Assembly (NCBI GenBank): GCA_016207165.1
Contig: JACQQD010000012.1
Coordinates: 1 to 64,000 of the forward strand
Length of the DNA stretch: 64,000 bases
Direction of reading: 5' to 3'
From: Candidatus Micrarchaeota archaeon
GTDB taxonomy: Archaea > Micrarchaeota > Micrarchaeia > Norongarragalinales > Norongarragalinaceae
The notes beneath the pieces were generated by a model. That model did no database searches. It saw nothing but the letters and a program-made list of their open reading frames with translations, and was not told where the DNA came from. Position numbers and translations under genes: made by a program. How positions within the stretch are numbered: position 1 is the stretch's first letter; each line of letters opens with the position of its first letter. Positions 18,829 to 63,580 of the stretch are shown piece by piece.

Positions 18829-19128
18829 GTGGCACTCAGCGAATTCCAGACAGGCACCGTGGTCTCCGTGCTCATGGTCATCGCCGTGGGGCACGCCGCG
18901 TTTGTGGGGGGCTCGCCTATGGACAGCGTGTGGATGTGGGGGCTGGGCTTTTTGTCTTACGCGCCCGTCATGCTGCTGAACGCGTTGGCCTCCTCGTCAT
19001 GGGCGTTACTGACTCCGCTGGCCGCGTTGGCGGTACTGGCGTACTTGATGGAATTGCAGAAAGCGGTCGGGGAAGGAATCTACTTGGTTATTTTGGCCGC
19101 CGGCATCTTGATGGGTTGGGGCGTGTAG
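18829..19128 (+). CDS. small hydrophobic membrane protein (paralog family)
   Basis: 99 aa with LLTPLAALA..GE..GV C-terminus. Confidence 0.7.
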   Translation: MALSEFQTGTVVSVLMVIAVGHAAFVGGSPMDSVWMWGLGFLSYAPVMLLNALASSSWALLTPLAALAVLAYLMELQKAVGEGIYLVILAAGILMGWGV

Positions 19129-19254
19129 CGTCCAGAAGCCTTAAAACGGCTTCACCTCCATATACCCTTTTTCTCCGGGGCCCAAAGCAAAGACCGTAAT
19201 GTTCCTCGGTTAGTTTGCCATCGCGCCCGGCAGGGCCGATGGGTTCGCTCAAAA

Positions 19255-19326
19255 GGGCTCGTAGTCGAGTGGTAAGACGCCGCCTTCGCAAGGCGGAGAC
19301 CGCGGGTTCAATTCCCGCCGAGTCCA
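19255..19326 (+). tRNA. tRNA-Ala(CGC)
   Basis: Cloverleaf with CCGCC-TTCGCAA-GGCGG anticodon arm and G3:U70 pair. Confidence 0.95.
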
Positions 19327-19327
19327 T

Positions 19328-19495
19328 AGTAGTTTGAGTAACCGCAAGTCTTTCAGTTCTGCGGCTGCTCGGACACGGGCCTTACGTGCGGTCGCTTCCC
19401 TGCAAAAAAGAGGGAGGGGATCGGGGTAACGTAGGACTAAGGGGAACCGTAGGTGCCCCTTAGTCCCGGCGTGGTTCAATTCCCGCCGAGTCCAT
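19328..19495 (+). mobile_element. 145-nt non-coding insert with GTAG+hairpin, followed by 23-bp duplication of tRNA-Ala 3' end
   Basis: GGTTCAATTCCCGCCGAGTCCAT at 19305-19327 and 19473-19495; hairpin GGACTAAGGGG..CCCCTTAGTCC 19434-19466. Confidence 0.7.
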
Positions 19496-19499
19496 TTTC

Positions 19500-20612
19500 A
19501 TGGAGAGTCGGCCGAAACGCATCGCGATTGCCGCCATGGGTACCGGCGGCCACATTTATCCAGGAATCGAGATCGCGCGCAAGCTTCGGGAACAGGGTCA
19601 CGAGGTGCTGTTCGTGGGCACCACGGACCGCATGGAAAAAGAGTTGGTGCCTGCGCAGGGGTTTCCGATTGAGTTGATTCGGGCCGAGCCGTTTGCCGGC
19701 GAAGGGGTTCTGGGAAAAATCCGGGCGCTGGTGAACTTGGTTCCGGCGACGGCGAAAAGTTTTCGGATTTTGAGGGACTTCAAGGCGGATGGCGTAGTGG
19801 GCACTGGGGCGTACGGCTCGGTGCCAGTGGCTTTGGCGGCCAAGCTTCGGGGCTTGCCGTTGGTAGTGTATGAACCCAATGGGCATCCGGGGTTGGCGAA
19901 CCGCGTTTTGTCGTGGCTGGCGGACTCGGTGTTCACTCCTTTTTCGGCGTTTGTGGACCGGTTTCCGAAGTCCAAGGTGAAAGTAGGGGCCGTGGTCAAG
20001 AAAGAGGCTTTATCCGCGGAAAGGAACCTGGGGCGGAACGGGTTTACGGTTTGGGTGTTTGGGGGAAGCCAGGGGTCGCGGGTGTTGAATCAGGCGGTGG
20101 TGGAGGCGTTGCCGCATTTGGAAGAAGGAATCAGGGTATCTCACATGACGGGGCGCAACGAGTTTGACGCGGTGCGGCGGCAGTACCCGGTGGATGGGGG
20201 GCATCGCGTGGTGCCGTACGTGGATGACGTTGGGAATGCGTACGGGGAAGCCGACGTGATCGTGATGCGGGGAGGCGCTACCAGCCTCACGGAAATCTCG
20301 GTTTTTCGGGACCCGCATGGAAAATCCAGGCCGGTCATCGCGGTTCCGTTCGAGGGACAAGGCGGCCAACAGACCACGCCCAACGTGTTGGCCGAAAAGG
20401 GGGCCCTTTTGGTCATTCCGCAAAGCAGGCTTTCCGGTCCCGCGTTGGCGCAAGCCGTCAACGGGTTGTATCGGGATGGAAAGACTCGGAAAGCGTTGGC
20501 GGACGCGTTGGCAGGGCAAGTCACGTCAAGCGAGGGCGCGCACGCTATTGCCGGCGAAATCGTTTCGCTGGCAGAGCGGCGGAACGGCGAGAAAATCCGG
20601 CAGCCGCGTTGA
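19500..20612 (+). CDS. MurG-like GT28 N-acetylglucosaminyltransferase
   Basis: GTGGHIYPG, EPNGHPGLANR, GGSQGS and RGGATSLTE motifs. Confidence 0.85.
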   Translation: MESRPKRIAIAAMGTGGHIYPGIEIARKLREQGHEVLFVGTTDRMEKELVPAQGFPIELIRAEPFAGEGVLGKIRALVNLVPATAKSFRILRDFKADGVVGTGAYGSVPVALAAKLRGLPLVVYEPNGHPGLANRVLSWLADSVFTPFSAFVDRFPKSKVKVGAVVKKEALSAERNLGRNGFTVWVFGGSQGSRVLNQAVVEALPHLEEGIRVSHMTGRNEFDAVRRQYPVDGGHRVVPYVDDVGNAYGEADVIVMRGGATSLTEISVFRDPHGKSRPVIAVPFEGQGGQQTTPNVLAEKGALLVIPQSRLSGPALAQAVNGLYRDGKTRKALADALAGQVTSSEGAHAIAGEIVSLAERRNGEKIRQPR

Positions 20613-58618: not shown

Positions 58619-58754
58619 TGGAGGGGGAGGGATTTGAACCCTCGAACCCACAAAGGGAACAGATTCCCCAACCCGGCCGAAAAGCCGGAACGTTCATGGG
58701 AGTTGGCCTGGGATCTTGAGTCTGTCGCGTTTGACCAGGCTTTGCTACCCCTCC
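58619..58754 (-). tRNA. tRNA-Leu(CAA) with 50-nt intron at 37/38 (58665-58714)
   Basis: ACAGA-CTCAAG|intron|A-TCTGT; BHB central helix CTCA/TGGG; acceptor GGAGGGG/CCCCTCC. Confidence 0.92.
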
Positions 58755-61240: not shown

Positions 61241-63295
61241 ATGGTCATCCGGAAAATCAGGAAACGCGACGGCCGGTTGGAGGACTTTGACCACAAGCGC
61301 ATTTCCACCGCGATTTTCAAGGCCGCCAAATCCGTGGGGGGCCAGGACTGGTCGCTGGCGGAAAAACTGACGGACGACGTGGTCCGGCAACTGGAAGCCC
61401 AATTCGCGGGCCAGACGCCGACCGTAGAGCAAGTCCAGGACCTCGTGGAAAAGACGCTCATTGAATCCGGGCACGCCAAGACCGCGAAAACCTACATTTT
61501 GTACCGCAAACAGCGCGCCGACATCCGCGACGTGCGGAAACTCATGGACTCCGACGAACTGGTGGACGGGTACCTGGGGGAAATGGATTGGCGCGTCAAG
61601 GAAAACGCGAACATGAGCTACAGCCTTCAGGGTCTTAACTTCCACATCTCTTCGGCCGTGATTTCCAGGTACTGGCTGAACAAGTTGTACCCGGAAAAAA
61701 TCGCTTCCGCCCATTCGTCCGGGGACTTCCACATCCACGACCTCGGCATTCTGGGGCCGTACTGCGTGGGCTGGGACCTCAAGGACCTTTTGTTGAACGG
61801 GTTTGGCCACGTGTCCGGAAAAATTTCAAGCAAGCCCGCCAGGCACTTCCGCACGGCTCTGGGCCAAGTCGTCAATTTCTTCTATACCTTGCAAGGCGAG
61901 GCCGCCGGAGCGCAGGCGTTTTCCAGCTTCGACTCGTATTTGGCGCCGTTCATCCGCTACGACGGACTGGACGAAAAGCAAGTCAAACAAGCCCTCCAGG
62001 AATTTGTTTTCAACATCAACGTGCCCACCCGCGTGGGCTTCCAGACGCCGTTTACCAACATCACCATGGACTTAAACGTGCCGAACATGATGAAAGGCGA
62101 GCCCGTCATTGCGGGCGGAACATTCCAGAACGAGGTATACGGCGACTTTCAGCCGGAACTGGACGTCTTGAATCAGGCGTTTGCCGAAGTCATGATGGAA
62201 GGCGACGCGCAAGAAAGGGTGTTCACGTTTCCCATTCCCACGTACAACATCACGAAAAACTTCAATTGGGACGCGCCGGTCGTGAAAAACGTGTTCGAAA
62301 TGACGGCCAAGTACGGCGTGCCATACTTTTCCAACTTTGTCAACTCCGACATGTCGCCGGAAGACGCCAGGAGTATGTGTTGTCGATTGAGGCTCGACAA
62401 CCGGGAACTGCGCAAACGCGGCGGAGGACTCTTTGGAGCCAATCCGCTTACCGGAAGCGTGGGGGTCGTCACCATCAACTTACCCCGCATTGGCTTTACG
62501 TGCAAGACCGAAGACGCGTACTTTGAAAAACTCGACGCCTTAATGGACTTGGCCAAAGAAAGCCTGGAAACCAAGCGCCACGTATTGGAAGGCTTCACGG
62601 AAAAAGGGCTGTACCCGTATTCACGGTACTACCTGCGCGACATCAAAAGCCAGTTCGGCCAATACTGGAAAAACCACTTCGCCACCATCGGCCTCATTGG
62701 AATGAACGAGTCCGTCCAGAACTTTTTGGGCGTGTCCATCGCCGACATCCAAGGCAAAGCCTTTGCACTCAAAATCCTCACCCACATGCGCAACCGCTTG
62801 GGCCAGTACCAGGAGGAAACCGGAAACATCTATAACCTGGAGGCCACTCCCGGCGAAGGCACGTCGCACCGCTTGGCGCGGCTGGACGCCGCCATGCACC
62901 CCGGCATCCGCGTGGCCAACCAAAACGCCGTCAACGTCCGCCAGGCCGCGGCATACTACACGAATTCCTCGCACCTACCCGTAGGCCACACGACGGACGT
63001 TTTCGAAGCCTTGGAACACCAAGACGAACTCCAAACCCAGTACACCGGCGGAACGGTGCTCCACGGATTTTTGGGAGAACAAGTCTCGGACTGGCGGACT
63101 GCCCGGGACTTGGTGCGCAAAATCGCGGAAAACTTCCACCTCCCGTACTTCACGTTGACACCCACGTTTTCCGTCTGCCCCAACCACGGGTACCTTGCGG
63201 GCGAGCATTTCTATTGCCCCACGTGCGACGAAGAAATCGGGTACGTTCAAGAAAAGGAGGAGAAAACCCATGGAAGCGCAATGCACCCCACATGA
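61241..63295 (+). CDS. nrdD: anaerobic (class III) ribonucleotide reductase large subunit with ATP cone, lacking the glycyl-radical motif
   Basis: IRKRDG ATP cone, HIHDL, RSMCCRL, EATPGE, YTNSS, TGGTVLH, SVCPNHG..CPTC. Confidence 0.93.
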   Translation: MVIRKIRKRDGRLEDFDHKRISTAIFKAAKSVGGQDWSLAEKLTDDVVRQLEAQFAGQTPTVEQVQDLVEKTLIESGHAKTAKTYILYRKQRADIRDVRKLMDSDELVDGYLGEMDWRVKENANMSYSLQGLNFHISSAVISRYWLNKLYPEKIASAHSSGDFHIHDLGILGPYCVGWDLKDLLLNGFGHVSGKISSKPARHFRTALGQVVNFFYTLQGEAAGAQAFSSFDSYLAPFIRYDGLDEKQVKQALQEFVFNINVPTRVGFQTPFTNITMDLNVPNMMKGEPVIAGGTFQNEVYGDFQPELDVLNQAFAEVMMEGDAQERVFTFPIPTYNITKNFNWDAPVVKNVFEMTAKYGVPYFSNFVNSDMSPEDARSMCCRLRLDNRELRKRGGGLFGANPLTGSVGVVTINLPRIGFTCKTEDAYFEKLDALMDLAKESLETKRHVLEGFTEKGLYPYSRYYLRDIKSQFGQYWKNHFATIGLIGMNESVQNFLGVSIADIQGKAFALKILTHMRNRLGQYQEETGNIYNLEATPGEGTSHRLARLDAAMHPGIRVANQNAVNVRQAAAYYTNSSHLPVGHTTDVFEALEHQDELQTQYTGGTVLHGFLGEQVSDWRTARDLVRKIAENFHLPYFTLTPTFSVCPNHGYLAGEHFYCPTCDEEIGYVQEKEEKTHGSAMHPT

Positions 63296-63437
63296 AAACC
63301 TGGAAAACAAGCGAACGAAATGCGAAGTCTACAGGCCGCGGAACCGCGGGGGACACCTCCGCTTCGCTCCGGTTTCCCCCTCAGTTCTACGTTCCTCCGG
63401 ATCCCCCTTCCCACGAAAAGAGGACCAAGAGGTGTAA
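63270..63437 (+). pseudogene. interrupted 5' copy of the NrdD glycyl-radical peptide gene
   Basis: AGGAGG RBS + MEAQCTPHENLENKRTKCEVY, then runs into the insert. Confidence 0.55.
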
Positions 63438-63445
63438 GCATGCAG
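63335..63445 (-). mobile_element. 111-nt insert with GTAG+hairpin between 41-bp direct repeats
   Basis: GAAAACCTGGAAAACAAGCGAACGAAATGCGAAGTCTACAG at 63294-63334 and 63446-63486; reverse complement aligns with 19412-19470. Confidence 0.7.
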
Positions 63446-63580
63446 GAAAACCTGGAAAACAAGCGAACGAAATGCGAAGTCTACAGCCGAGTCGTCGGAT
63501 ACCTTCGACCCGTAGACCAATGGAATGAAGGCAAGCAAGCCGAGTTCTCGGAACGCAAAACATACCGGGTCCAACCATGA
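63440..63580 (+). CDS. NrdD C-terminal glycyl-radical peptide (46 aa)
   Basis: GAGGTG RBS; MQENLENKRTKCEVYSRVVGYLRPVDQWNEGKQAEF. Confidence 0.85.
   Translation: MQENLENKRTKCEVYSRVVGYLRPVDQWNEGKQAEFSERKTYRVQP

Follow-up and report, generated by a model that had tools for sequence, protein, structure and literature searches.

Gene-less hairpin cassettes flanked by long repeats of gene ends in a Micrarchaeota genome

Why should the last nucleotides of a tRNA gene stand on both sides of a small insert? In the DNA analysed here, a 64,000-nt stretch of a Candidatus Micrarchaeota genome that we refer to as the window, 145 nt (19328-19472) lie directly 3' of a tRNA-Ala(CGC) gene, between two copies of that gene's last 23 nt. 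A preliminary description took the insert for either a small non-autonomous element or the scar of an integrative one, and likened it to REP sequences. The questions are whether the duplication is real, whether it belongs to a wider family, and what kind of movement would leave such repeats behind.

The tRNA-Ala locus and a second copy at nrdD

The duplicated stretch is an exact 23-mer, 19305-19327 repeated at 19473-19495, and the window has 0 further matches when up to 3 mismatches are allowed; 100 shuffles give an expectation of 0. The features of this locus, and of the one other family copy in the window, are as follows.

19255..19326, + strand: intact tRNA-Ala(CGC) with a G3:U70 pair, read as the regenerated target gene (ARAGORN; Rfam RF00005, 72.6 bits)
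19305..19327, + strand: left repeat copy T_L, within the intact tRNA (exact 23-mer)
19328..19409, + strand: variable left part of the insert (sequence reading; fold)
19410..19426, + strand: G-rich box GAGGGAGGGGATCGGGG, conserved 5' module of the family (24-copy alignment; model match 19409-19471)
19434..19466, + strand: GC hairpin (fold; covariation across copies)
19467..19472, + strand: 6-nt tail CGGCGT, from the hairpin to the displaced repeat (sequence reading)
19473..19495, + strand: right repeat copy T_R, the displaced 23-nt tRNA 3'-end fragment (exact 23-mer)
19500..20612, + strand: downstream gene, a family-28 glycosyltransferase, MurG-like (ORF list; Pfam PF03033 1.2e-33, PF04101 3.7e-22)
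63294..63486, - strand: second family copy, in reverse orientation, with 41-nt exact repeats around a 111-nt insert (repeat search; covariance model)

T_L takes in the last 2 bp of the T-stem 5' strand, spans the T-loop and reaches 1 nt beyond the discriminator, and the repeat begins at GGTTCAATTCC, the T-stem end and T-loop. The insert starts 2 nt past the discriminator (tRNA end 19326, insert 19328). It is therefore outside the mature tRNA, and an archaeal BHB tRNA intron, which would lie inside it, was rejected as a candidate. The variable left part opens with a degenerate version of the TTTGATTCGC-type motif known from other family copies and holds a C-rich stretch that is predicted to pair with the G-box; the covariance model with filters off gave no additional family match there. 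The hairpin consists of 11-bp arms (19434-19444 and 19456-19466) and an apical part of 11 nt, has GTAG at its foot (19431-19434), and ends 6 nt before the displaced repeat, in agreement with the ~6-7 nt noted earlier. As a whole the insert folds with z = -4.76 (against 200 shuffles). It is without a notable ORF in the window's ORF list, and a permissive Rfam threshold returned nothing but the tRNA and sub-threshold noise.

T_R runs straight into the native downstream flank (TTTC, then ATG), and identical downstream letters follow the displaced tRNA-Ala fragment in a sister genome, G001. Because the glycosyltransferase start codon is 4 nt past the displaced fragment, the repeat also keeps that gene's native upstream bases.

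The copy near nrdD, which the preliminary description had recognized as a relative in opposite orientation, is bounded by repeats at 63294-63334 and 63446-63486. It sits in the 5' part of a small glycyl-radical gene split off from nrdD, and its element side contributes an RBS-like stretch and an ATG (63440) that make a new start; the 46-aa ORF at this copy matches Pfam NRDD positions 531-562. GTAG precedes the palindrome here as in the tRNA-Ala copy. With filters off, the covariance model finds only these two copies in the window, scoring 43.5 and 43.8 bits, but both are among the 24 used to build the model and so match by construction. The earlier statement that the target gene is left intact holds for tRNA-Ala, whereas in two sister genomes nrdD already consists of two genes, one large and one small.

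A false tandem join at the repeated 23-mer would make the duplication an assembly artefact. The genome is a metagenome bin, and the support for its junctions comes from assembled contigs, not raw reads. These contigs, from three runs in Logan, nevertheless cross both junctions with zero differences: one of 1,710 nt covers 19270-19700, one of 15,946 nt covers 19298-19700, and one of 157 nt, from a separate sample, covers 19326-19482. The first two may come from source samples of the assembly; one of the three runs is not flagged as a source. The same architecture also recurs in three genomes that were assembled separately, both at orthologous positions and elsewhere. The 23-nt duplication is not an artefact of a single assembly, and we give an assembly error a negligible chance. 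Among the contigs of the runs examined there was neither a joint representing an empty tRNA-Ala allele nor an excised circle.

A fourth contig joins the exact upstream flank of this genome to a G001-type element, and may be chimeric via the 72-nt tRNA that is identical in both organisms. Parts of the locus without cover in the run of this contig and in that of the 157-nt contig were not counted as evidence.

A dispersed family and the character of its flanking repeats

The genome containing the window (G000) is a 1.27-Mb groundwater Micrarchaeota genome, 90% complete; G001 and G002 are congeners, and G009 belongs to another genus. A BLAST search of G000 with the 145-nt insert did not find a second copy, the family being too divergent for this method, and a profile and a covariance model were therefore needed. 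With nhmmer, 23 family matches were obtained in the 1.27 Mb at E<0.01 and 28 at E<=10, and a covariance model built from the alignment of 24 G000 copies matched 29 times in G001 and 18 times in G002. The family is present in one Micrarchaeota genus and some neighbouring genera. In the literature searched, we found no description of it.

All this bears out the idea of a small, multi-copy element; the family is gene-less and occupies dozens of sites. Its layout, read 5' to 3', comprises a G-rich box, a covarying GC hairpin and a short tail of 3-6 nt, with a T-rich left motif as an optional addition. Both-sided changes in 7 of 10 consensus pairs across copies extend the compensatory stem changes that had been noted earlier between the two window copies. 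The common core is ~55 nt, and the inserts measure about 51-167 nt (46 duplication-bearing copies in three genomes). The same core recurs at many tRNAs and at over 20 different protein genes. Two G000 sites have an identical 56-nt core in common, and a G009 copy is 96% identical over 54 nt beside a flanking gene that is 72% identical. That cores should be so nearly the same at sites without relationship, and even across genera, suggests recent spread. Some copies lie inside ARAGORN-predicted tRNA introns (L053, L066), and inverted element pairs occur within a single repeat pair (C8:8628, L049). Tandem repeat-element-repeat arrays at tRNA ends (L042, L066 and the 5' side of the G001 tRNA-Ala) are what repeated Campbell-type entry predicts.

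By the preliminary description, a lack of target duplications at other copies would have refuted its reading. Of the 57 copies examined, 46 carry a flank duplication above shuffle controls, 18-95 nt long (median 37); for most tRNA 3' sites the length is 19-30 nt. In many copies the two repeats match throughout: 23/23 at tRNA-Ala, and 43/43, 38/38 and 30/30 elsewhere. Measured from the model end, the right repeat begins at -10 to +5 nt (median +1), and the left repeat stops -6 to 102 nt short of the core. For the G000 copies without nearby repeats, no distant partner repeat was found.

The repeats are polar at tRNA genes. All 14 tRNA sites have the intact tRNA on the G-box side. In 13 duplication-bearing copies the left repeat coincides with the 3' terminus of an intact tRNA in the orientation of the element, and in 1 with a tRNA 5' end that lies on the opposite strand; in 0 duplication-bearing copies is the right repeat part of an intact tRNA. 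For protein genes we asked which of the two repeats, left or right, a long ORF is continuous with, but long frames extend on both sides at 28 of 46 sites in this compact, GC-rich genome, and we therefore draw polarity from the tRNA sites. Empty-site alleles, which the preliminary description proposed to look for in relatives, do exist. G000 lacks an insert at four sites that are filled in G001/G002, as well as at the G009 metK site, and G002 is empty at one site that is occupied in G000 and G001, where the right copy retains the native downstream tRNA.

Differences between the two repeat copies at protein genes fall mostly on positions that preserve the amino acid. With automated frames, 83 differing bases are preserving and 29 changing (random expectation for preserving 0.235; P = 1.6e-29), and after correction of four frames the count over 22 protein sites is 96 preserving versus 15 changing of 111, in sites that come from three related genomes and so are not fully independent, with local alignments that may favour alignable stretches. 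At one site 26 residues agree despite 18 synonymous differences, among them AGC versus TCT serine codons, and all 9 differences at the RNR-R2 end are synonymous. At the metK end of G009 there are two differing C-terminal tails, each within the range of relatives; the donor of this allele was not found among 26 genomes of the family. Because the differences are mostly synonymous, the repeats do not look like decaying target-site duplications. To judge from their codons, they look like a regenerated gene end and a displaced, recently functional fragment, comparable to attL and attR. These constraint-like differences are an observation new to this analysis.

For one site, the sequences of G002 and of four other genera were set beside both repeat copies of G000 and of G001. 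The identities, 48-61 of 78, are saturated, and similarity therefore cannot tell the native copy from the other. Both G000 copies have the lineage-specific residues V and R in common, which fits long co-residence better than a foreign allele. The same site has an apparent left/right swap of a serine/glutamate codon patch, which is suggestive only.

Possible routes of movement

We hypothesize that the insert represents a family of small (about 55-170 nt), non-autonomous hairpin cassettes that move by homology-anchored recombination, a mini integrative element rather than a transposon, and we hold this reading tentatively, with a confidence just short of even. A cassette would enter a gene end via recombination anchored in homology with that end, either by Campbell-type integration of a small circle or by homology-facilitated illegitimate joining at the hairpin end. 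Its G-box side is joined to the intact gene, where it would bring or preserve a working copy of the gene terminus, and its hairpin side to an internal point of the target, so that a displaced gene-end fragment of 18-95 nt follows. At tRNA-Ala the displaced fragment starts in the T-loop region, a classic crossover place for integrators at tRNA genes. The incoming DNA would often derive from another lineage, the cassette may leave and re-enter through its repeats, and the catalyst could be host recombination or a tyrosine recombinase of the genome acting in trans.

This cassette model covers homologous gene ends, with the first arrival at a new gene outside its account. Among the points against it are the perfectly identical repeats, just what a fresh staggered-cut duplication would leave, the median repeat length of 37 nt, compared with ~100 bp for the recombinase Int-pTN3, and the lack of an excised circle or an empty tRNA-Ala allele among the contigs. 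A broader form of the proposal is that gene-less hairpin cassettes are an unrecognised kind of mobile DNA, carrying a replacement gene terminus in, out and between species, with the hairpin setting the other joint; this we consider possible but rather doubtful.

Candidate enzymes were sought in the 90%-complete G000. It encodes three tyrosine recombinases. A Zn-ribbon tyrosine recombinase is patchily distributed (20 of 41 genomes of the order) and does not track the hairpin family. G000 also has an 11.7-kb island with a 15-nt tRNA-Met repeat at its flanks and an integrase at one end. Among the transposase families searched (PF01609, PF01797 and PF07282), PF01609 (DDE_Tnp_1) gave 0 matches and PF01797 (Y1/RAYT transposase) 0 at E<=0.01, with a control that matched 6 of 14 known genomes. 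PF07282 (TnpB), PF00078 (reverse transcriptase) and PF01867 (Cas1) were likewise not found in G000. Terminal inverted repeats are at chance level: when the first 25 nt are compared with the last 25, 1 of 46 inserts beats 95% of shuffles.

Several of these results bear on ordinary transposition in trans, in which staggered nicks at variable spacing would produce long target-site duplications and selection would keep the insertions that span gene ends. Many identical repeats (23/23, 43/43, 38/38), the wide range of repeat lengths (18-95 nt), the inverted pairs inside one repeat pair at C8:8628 and L049 and the identical cores at two sites would all follow, and IS1634-group elements do make long variable duplications. 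A decaying displaced copy should not, however, differ from its partner by 96 synonymous bases versus 15. The orientation fixed at 14 of 14 tRNA genes, the chance-level inverted repeats (1/46) and the absence of PF01609, PF01797, PF07282, PF00078 and PF01867 from G000 also speak against it, and we judge this explanation unlikely, though it deserves to be taken seriously. The comparison with REP sequences handled by a RAYT (HUH/Y1) transposase started from the GTAG that precedes the palindrome in the tRNA-Ala and nrdD copies, and the family is indeed small, structured and multi-copy. Yet of 24 aligned copies only 5 have GTAG at the foot of the hairpin, and 7 have it at any position on the 5' side, and PF01797 has no match; with GTAG unconserved and no RAYT found in the 90%-complete G000, the analogy fails. 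To our knowledge, moreover, REPs do not make target duplications, whereas long ones flank 46 of 57 copies here. On this sequence evidence the REP/RAYT reading appears largely refuted, and we assign it a very slight chance.

Enzyme-free copy-choice would dispense with a dedicated enzyme, none having been found in the Pfam searches of G000. In the course of replication or repair, a nascent strand would switch to another element copy at the gene end and return upstream via microhomology with the tail, re-copying 18-95 nt. The variable repeat length agrees with this, as does the extension of the repeat alignment 1-10 nt into the last positions of the element at 20 of 46 sites, which indicates microhomology; the tail resembles the start of the T-stem/T-loop at tRNA sites, and a stable hairpin (z = -4.76) is a plausible stalling point. 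What such copying predicts is identical fresh repeats followed by neutral decay, not synonymous-only differences or differing C-terminal tails, and it leaves near-identical cores in different genera unaccounted for; we think it rather improbable. The inserts could instead be scars, a large virus or plasmid having once occupied each site and left the hairpin module beside attR when its body was deleted. The regenerated gene, the displaced fragment and its T-loop start would be explained in this way, and the tRNA-Met island shows that an integrase-bearing element of 11.7 kb does reside in this genome. But the 46 sites in three genomes share the same ~55-nt core with inserts of merely 51-167 nt and no intermediate sizes seen, the repeat-less G000 copies have no distant partner repeat, and more than 20 protein-gene targets would require equally many site specificities. 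Dozens of sites with that core and nothing else make a remnant of a larger element improbable, and we give the scar reading little credence. Of the earlier suggestion, the likeness to integrative elements fits best and survives in the cassette model.

Known systems and what the family may mean

The closest parallels are islands and prophages that use tyrosine integrases (Islander-type tDNA islands, e14, Ms6), in which a regenerated gene likewise stands on one side and a displaced fragment on the other (PMC4383910). At tRNA genes these islands share with the hairpin family a fragment from the T-loop region to the 3' end and a fixed orientation, and phage Ms6 is described as recombining in the T-loop of tRNA-Ala (PMC1762012). 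In the account of e14, the element sits between icd and the icdC fragment, its excision is visible as synonymous icd changes, and the element-side protein-gene end differs synonymously from the displaced one (PMC13626634), as in our protein-gene repeats. The hairpin family differs in being only 51-167 nt, without integrase or cargo, and in having dozens of unrelated targets instead of one att site; what is conserved in it is the G-box and the covarying hairpin, and its repeats vary from 18 to 95 nt by site. The att-like architecture is known, and here it surrounds gene-less inserts of about 60-150 nt.

Other precedents share single traits. Int-pTN3, a tyrosine recombinase of Thermococcus nautili, is reported to recombine any homologous pair of about 100 bp, and offers an archaeal route by which arbitrary homologous segments integrate or excise; its activity was shown with segments from about 100 bp upward (PMC5495485), against a median of 37 nt for the hairpin-family repeats. 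We name it as a precedent by function, not by relationship to the G000 recombinases, whose distribution (20 of 41 relatives) does not follow the hairpin family. In mobile-element models of how archaeal tRNA genes are disrupted and gain introns (the Caldiarchaeum tRNA-Thr locus, transposed BHB introns), tRNA fragments are also scattered beside a mobile insert, but the Caldiarchaeum insert is 1.8 kb with a recombinase gene (PMC3293823), and our tRNA-Ala copy lies outside the mature tRNA and requires no splicing.

The family is small, non-coding, multi-copy and hairpin-forming, as are MITEs, REP/REPIN, Correia, ERIC and Rickettsia palindromic elements, with which it also shares a location at gene boundaries, sometimes inside genes, and presence/absence polymorphism between relatives. 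It departs from them in having no terminal inverted repeats, no short fixed target-site duplication and no parent IS or RAYT found in the searches of the 90%-complete G000 for PF01609, PF01797 and PF07282, and in its long flanking repeats, which behave like working gene ends. Two specific assignments were rejected: an IS with long variable duplications (IS4 family, IS1634 group), given 0 matches to PF01609 and no terminal inverted repeats, and a MITE, given inverted repeats in 1 of 46 inserts and a duplication of 18-95 nt that is neither short nor fixed. Homology-facilitated illegitimate recombination, seen in laboratory transformation of bacteria, makes one junction in homology and the other at a microhomology of a few bp. 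It resembles the gene-side and hairpin-side junctions of the cassettes, but is not known as the routine route of a repeated family and does not by itself account for the constant hairpin joint.

For annotation, displaced fragments and element-supplied starts and stops alter gene models, the small nrdD gene being an example. If the cassette model is true, a tiny symbiotic archaeon would carry dozens of minimal, gene-less 'integrative' units that follow the att logic of prophages and islands at many targets, and the landing site of a selfish element could be set by homology, not by a site-specific enzyme. The model would account for the partial tRNA and gene copies scattered through these genomes and would offer a testable route to archaeal tRNA gene fragments, leaders and introns. 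As a matter of routine, a process of this kind would give rise to displaced pieces of tRNAs and genes, to new starts and stops and perhaps also to tRNA introns.

The tRNA-Ala and nrdD inserts

The window (C12:1-64000) belongs to a 1.27-Mb genome (12 contigs, 90% complete; G000) and codes for archaeal proteins, among them TFB and A/V-ATPase subunit D. At tRNA-Ala, a four-part insert lies between two copies of the end of the tRNA gene:

19255-19326, tRNA-Ala(CGC), intact by ARAGORN and Rfam
19305-19327, left repeat copy: last 23 nt of tRNA-Ala, including one base past the discriminator
19328-19472, insert of 145 nt
left part of the insert, ahead of 19410: variable part
19410-19426, G-rich box
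19434-19466, hairpin with 11-bp arms
between hairpin and right repeat copy: 6-nt tail
19473-19495, right repeat copy: exact recurrence of the 23 nt
four bases past the right repeat copy: start of a family-28 glycosyltransferase gene

The preliminary description had reported a target duplication here, beside an intact tRNA gene and with the hairpin ending just short of the duplicated target, and each of these points is borne out. The exact 23-mer occurs twice, a match reached in 0 of 100 shuffles, and contigs (not raw reads) of three public runs, one of them from a sample not marked as source of the assembly, span both junctions without difference. The hairpin stops 6 nt ahead of the target, and the fold of the 145-nt insert is well above its shuffles (z = -4.76). 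Because the glycosyltransferase gene starts four bases past the right copy, the duplication preserves both tRNA-Ala and the native upstream bases of that gene. In a further run (X4), a 604-nt contig (record 25) matches 19100-19326 exactly and then enters the start of an element of the type found in the congener G001. The contig may come from a close strain in which a different cassette occupies this site, or be a chimera formed via the tRNA, whose 72 nt are common to the G000 and G001 organisms.

The nrdD insert, previously aligned with the tRNA-Ala insert, belongs to the same family: with filters off, these two are the only window matches to R1, a covariance model built from 24 copies that include both. 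Two congeners (G001 and G002) also have nrdD in two pieces, a large gene and a small one for the glycyl-radical end with other small frames between, so the split predates the element. Here the small gene carries the element past its codon 22. The displaced fragment on the hairpin side, now running into the element, is the native start (MEAQCTPH...), and the working copy, on the other side, has a new ATG with an RBS-like stretch ahead. Its 46-aa product matches the last 32 positions of the NRDD model. The spacers of the split gene vary and hold small frames in each of the three genomes of the genus (window 63271-63580; loci L086 and L087), and the genus may have a naturally two-piece anaerobic ribonucleotide reductase. 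Elsewhere in the window, a tRNA-Leu(CAA) at 58619-58754 (- strand) is interrupted by about 50 nt in the region of the anticodon loop. It was found by the Rfam tRNA model (40.2 bits) and missed by default ARAGORN, and it has its 3' 40 nt in common with another tRNA-Leu (C6:20926-20985).

Structure, range and polarity of the family

Searching the genome for the core yields a multi-copy family. A script for exact direct repeats of at least 15 nt, 40-260 nt apart, returned 48 pairs, 19 of which, judged by eye, enclose the same G-box-plus-hairpin core in either orientation; a profile search gave 28 matches, 23 at E<0.01. Aligning 24 copies shows that both partners have changed in 7 of 10 consensus pairs, which indicates that base pairing is conserved rather than sequence, and the outer stem alternates among the forms GGAC/GTCC, GGTCG/CGACC and AAGC/GCTT. 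R1 also matches 29 times in G001 and 18 times in G002. At E<=0.001 and with stricter filters, only 5 genomes in a sample of 151 from the phylum have matches (22 in G000, 22 in G001 and one in each of three others), and BLAST finds copies in a further genus (G009). In the literature searched, on archaeal MITEs that duplicate their targets at tRNA genes, on Micrarchaeota repeats and tRNA introns, and on DPANN repetitive elements, we found no description of the family.

Long duplications, first noted at tRNA-Ala, are common among other copies. Requiring the left/right flank match to outscore every one of 30 shuffles with a margin, we found one in 46 of 57 copies (27 from G000 and 30 loci from G001 and G002), with lengths of 18-95 nt and a median of 37. 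The right repeat starts directly past the hairpin tail, -10 to +5 nt from the model end, and in 20 of the 46 the match extends a few bases into the element end; the left repeat ends -6 to 102 nt ahead of the core. Where tRNA genes are involved (ARAGORN, introns allowed), 13 copies have an intact tRNA, oriented like the element, whose 3' end is the left repeat; in one copy the left repeat is a 5' end of a tRNA on the opposite strand; and no duplication-bearing copy has an intact tRNA on its hairpin side. In three more copies it is the hairpin end that touches a tRNA 3' end, and these are inverted and lack a duplication; tandem arrays and inverted pairs also occur. This fixed polarity at tRNA genes is new here, as is the absence of transposon hallmarks: terminal inverted repeats are not a family trait (1 of 46).

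ARAGORN also predicts tRNA-Phe genes in G001 (L053, C11:705-767) and G002 (L066, C42) with a hairpin element inside long 'introns' of 107 and 77 nt, respectively. Direct repeats have been described at intron borders (PMC11782384), and so have mobile elements that scatter tRNA fragments in Caldiarchaeum (PMC3293823); the route of tRNA intron arrival in Asgard archaea is left open in another account (10.64898/2026.10.13.758758).

Empty sites and candidate enzymes

Empty-site alleles do exist in related genomes. Four G001/G002 insertions have an empty site in G000: at the rpl23/rpl2 junction, the RNR-R2 3' end, a gene start and a thioredoxin-reductase-like 3' end, the last with a duplication of about 100 nt. 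The G009 insertion behind metK is likewise empty in G000, and one site is filled in G000 and G001 and empty in G002. There the G001 right repeat is followed by the same tRNA as the empty site, which identifies the right copy as native context. G001, too, carries a member of the family behind the tRNA of the syntenic tRNA-Ala/glycosyltransferase locus, with a 92-nt insert, a different hairpin and a displaced fragment with 2-3 mismatches; G002 has an identical tRNA-Ala with nothing behind it in a different neighbourhood.

The G001 tRNA-Ala is also preceded by two AT-hairpin inserts in tandem, each with a partial 5' tRNA copy, for both of which G000 is empty. They represent a second family, an AT-rich hairpin plus A-rich stretch inserted ahead of tRNA genes (L006, G001 C1:303560-303890; L007, G002; G000 C6:92109-95514), and every copy comes with a displaced partial duplicate of the tRNA 5' end. 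At the end nearest the gene stands a GCGAATC motif, the mirror of GATTCGC at the left end of the GC-hairpin family. The metK 3' end is a recurrent landing place: besides the G009 insertion, a different-looking relative, a hairpin element of another subfamily, lies 3' of the stop codon in another genus (L098 in G011 and L099 in G017).

The suggested kinship with REP sequences handled by RAYT transposases is not supported, as GTAG occupies the homologous position in only 5 of 24 copies and no RAYT was found in G000. Searches of this genome for Y1/RAYT, RVT_1, the TnpB zinc-ribbon domain, DDE_Tnp_1 and Cas1, the only families searched in an assembly 90% complete, found none. It encodes one serine recombinase and three tyrosine recombinases. 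Two of the latter are paralogues that each carry a zinc ribbon at the C-terminus (C3:309-1529 and C5:32432-33720; 62% identical). The zinc-ribbon enzyme occurs in 20 of 41 relatives, a distribution that does not track the element; such patchy spread is what mobile-element integrases typically show. An integrated island of 11.7 kb outside the window (C1:152884-164870) runs from tRNA-Met through a tyrosine recombinase gene to a serine recombinase near its far end, where a 15-nt copy of the tRNA-Met 3' end lies at 164682. This island is a full-size example of the hairpin-cassette architecture in the same genome. An inverted pair of hairpin elements lies directly past the 15-nt copy.

Gene-end versions and the origin of the repeats

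Past the exact repeat, left and right copies often continue as diverged homologues. With automated frames, 29 sites were called coding and the differing bases divide into 83 amino-acid-preserving versus 29 changing codons (binomial P 1.6e-29 against 0.235), in a set where three frames or strands are wrong and several of the ORFs, lying over tRNAs, are spurious. Once four frames had been fixed by known peptides and seven spurious rows removed (six without differences and one tRNA site with 0/3), the remaining 22 protein sites, 20 with differences, give 96 preserving versus 15 changing (P about 1e-44 against 0.235); these sites come from three related genomes, and the local alignment retains only stretches still alignable, although neutral divergence of equal degree would still align under this scoring. 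In one case a 26-residue end is identical in both copies despite 18 differences, including AGC versus TCT serine codons. The R2 end has 9 differences, all synonymous, with the same stop position, the first 16 codons of ATPase D have 5, all synonymous, and TFB has 4. At the G009 metK site, five shared codons differing at 4 third positions are followed by two different C-terminal tails, both within the range of relatives.

Two rival explanations, ordinary transposition that makes long duplications of variable length and template switching without an enzyme, are still live, and each predicts many perfectly identical repeats, including the 23-mer at tRNA-Ala. An untranslated fragment displaced by target-site duplication should, however, decay mostly through amino-acid-changing and frame-breaking changes, whereas the copies that differ do so mostly synonymously (96 versus 15). 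This pattern argues that the displaced copy either worked until recently or is renewed at regular intervals. Signs of recent, horizontal movement also appear in the sequences: two G000 sites, the ATPase D start and a C10 gene end, have a 56-nt identical core, with their own flank repeats diverged, and a G009 copy is 96% identical to these cores over 54 nt next to a gene only 72% identical to its G000 counterpart.

In bacterial transformation, foreign DNA can be captured through homology on one side and joined illegitimately on the other. Such capture, with the illegitimate joint at the hairpin, could have brought the elements in, or they could have entered as small circles of the Campbell type. 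The gene-side joint would be homologous, bringing a spare gene end, and the hairpin-side joint would form at an internal target point with little or no homology. Published systems offer parallels: phage Ms6 recombines at the T-loop of tRNA-Ala (PMC1762012), e14 is flanked by icd and an icdC fragment, so that excising it registers as a group of synonymous changes (PMC13626634), and the archaeal tyrosine recombinase Int-pTN3 recombines any homologous pair of about 100 bp (PMC5495485). By analogy with these, our preferred reading of the GC-hairpin family is that of miniature, non-autonomous integrative cassettes. What is new here is that both repeat copies look like working gene ends, the element-adjacent one apparently being a separate, selected version.
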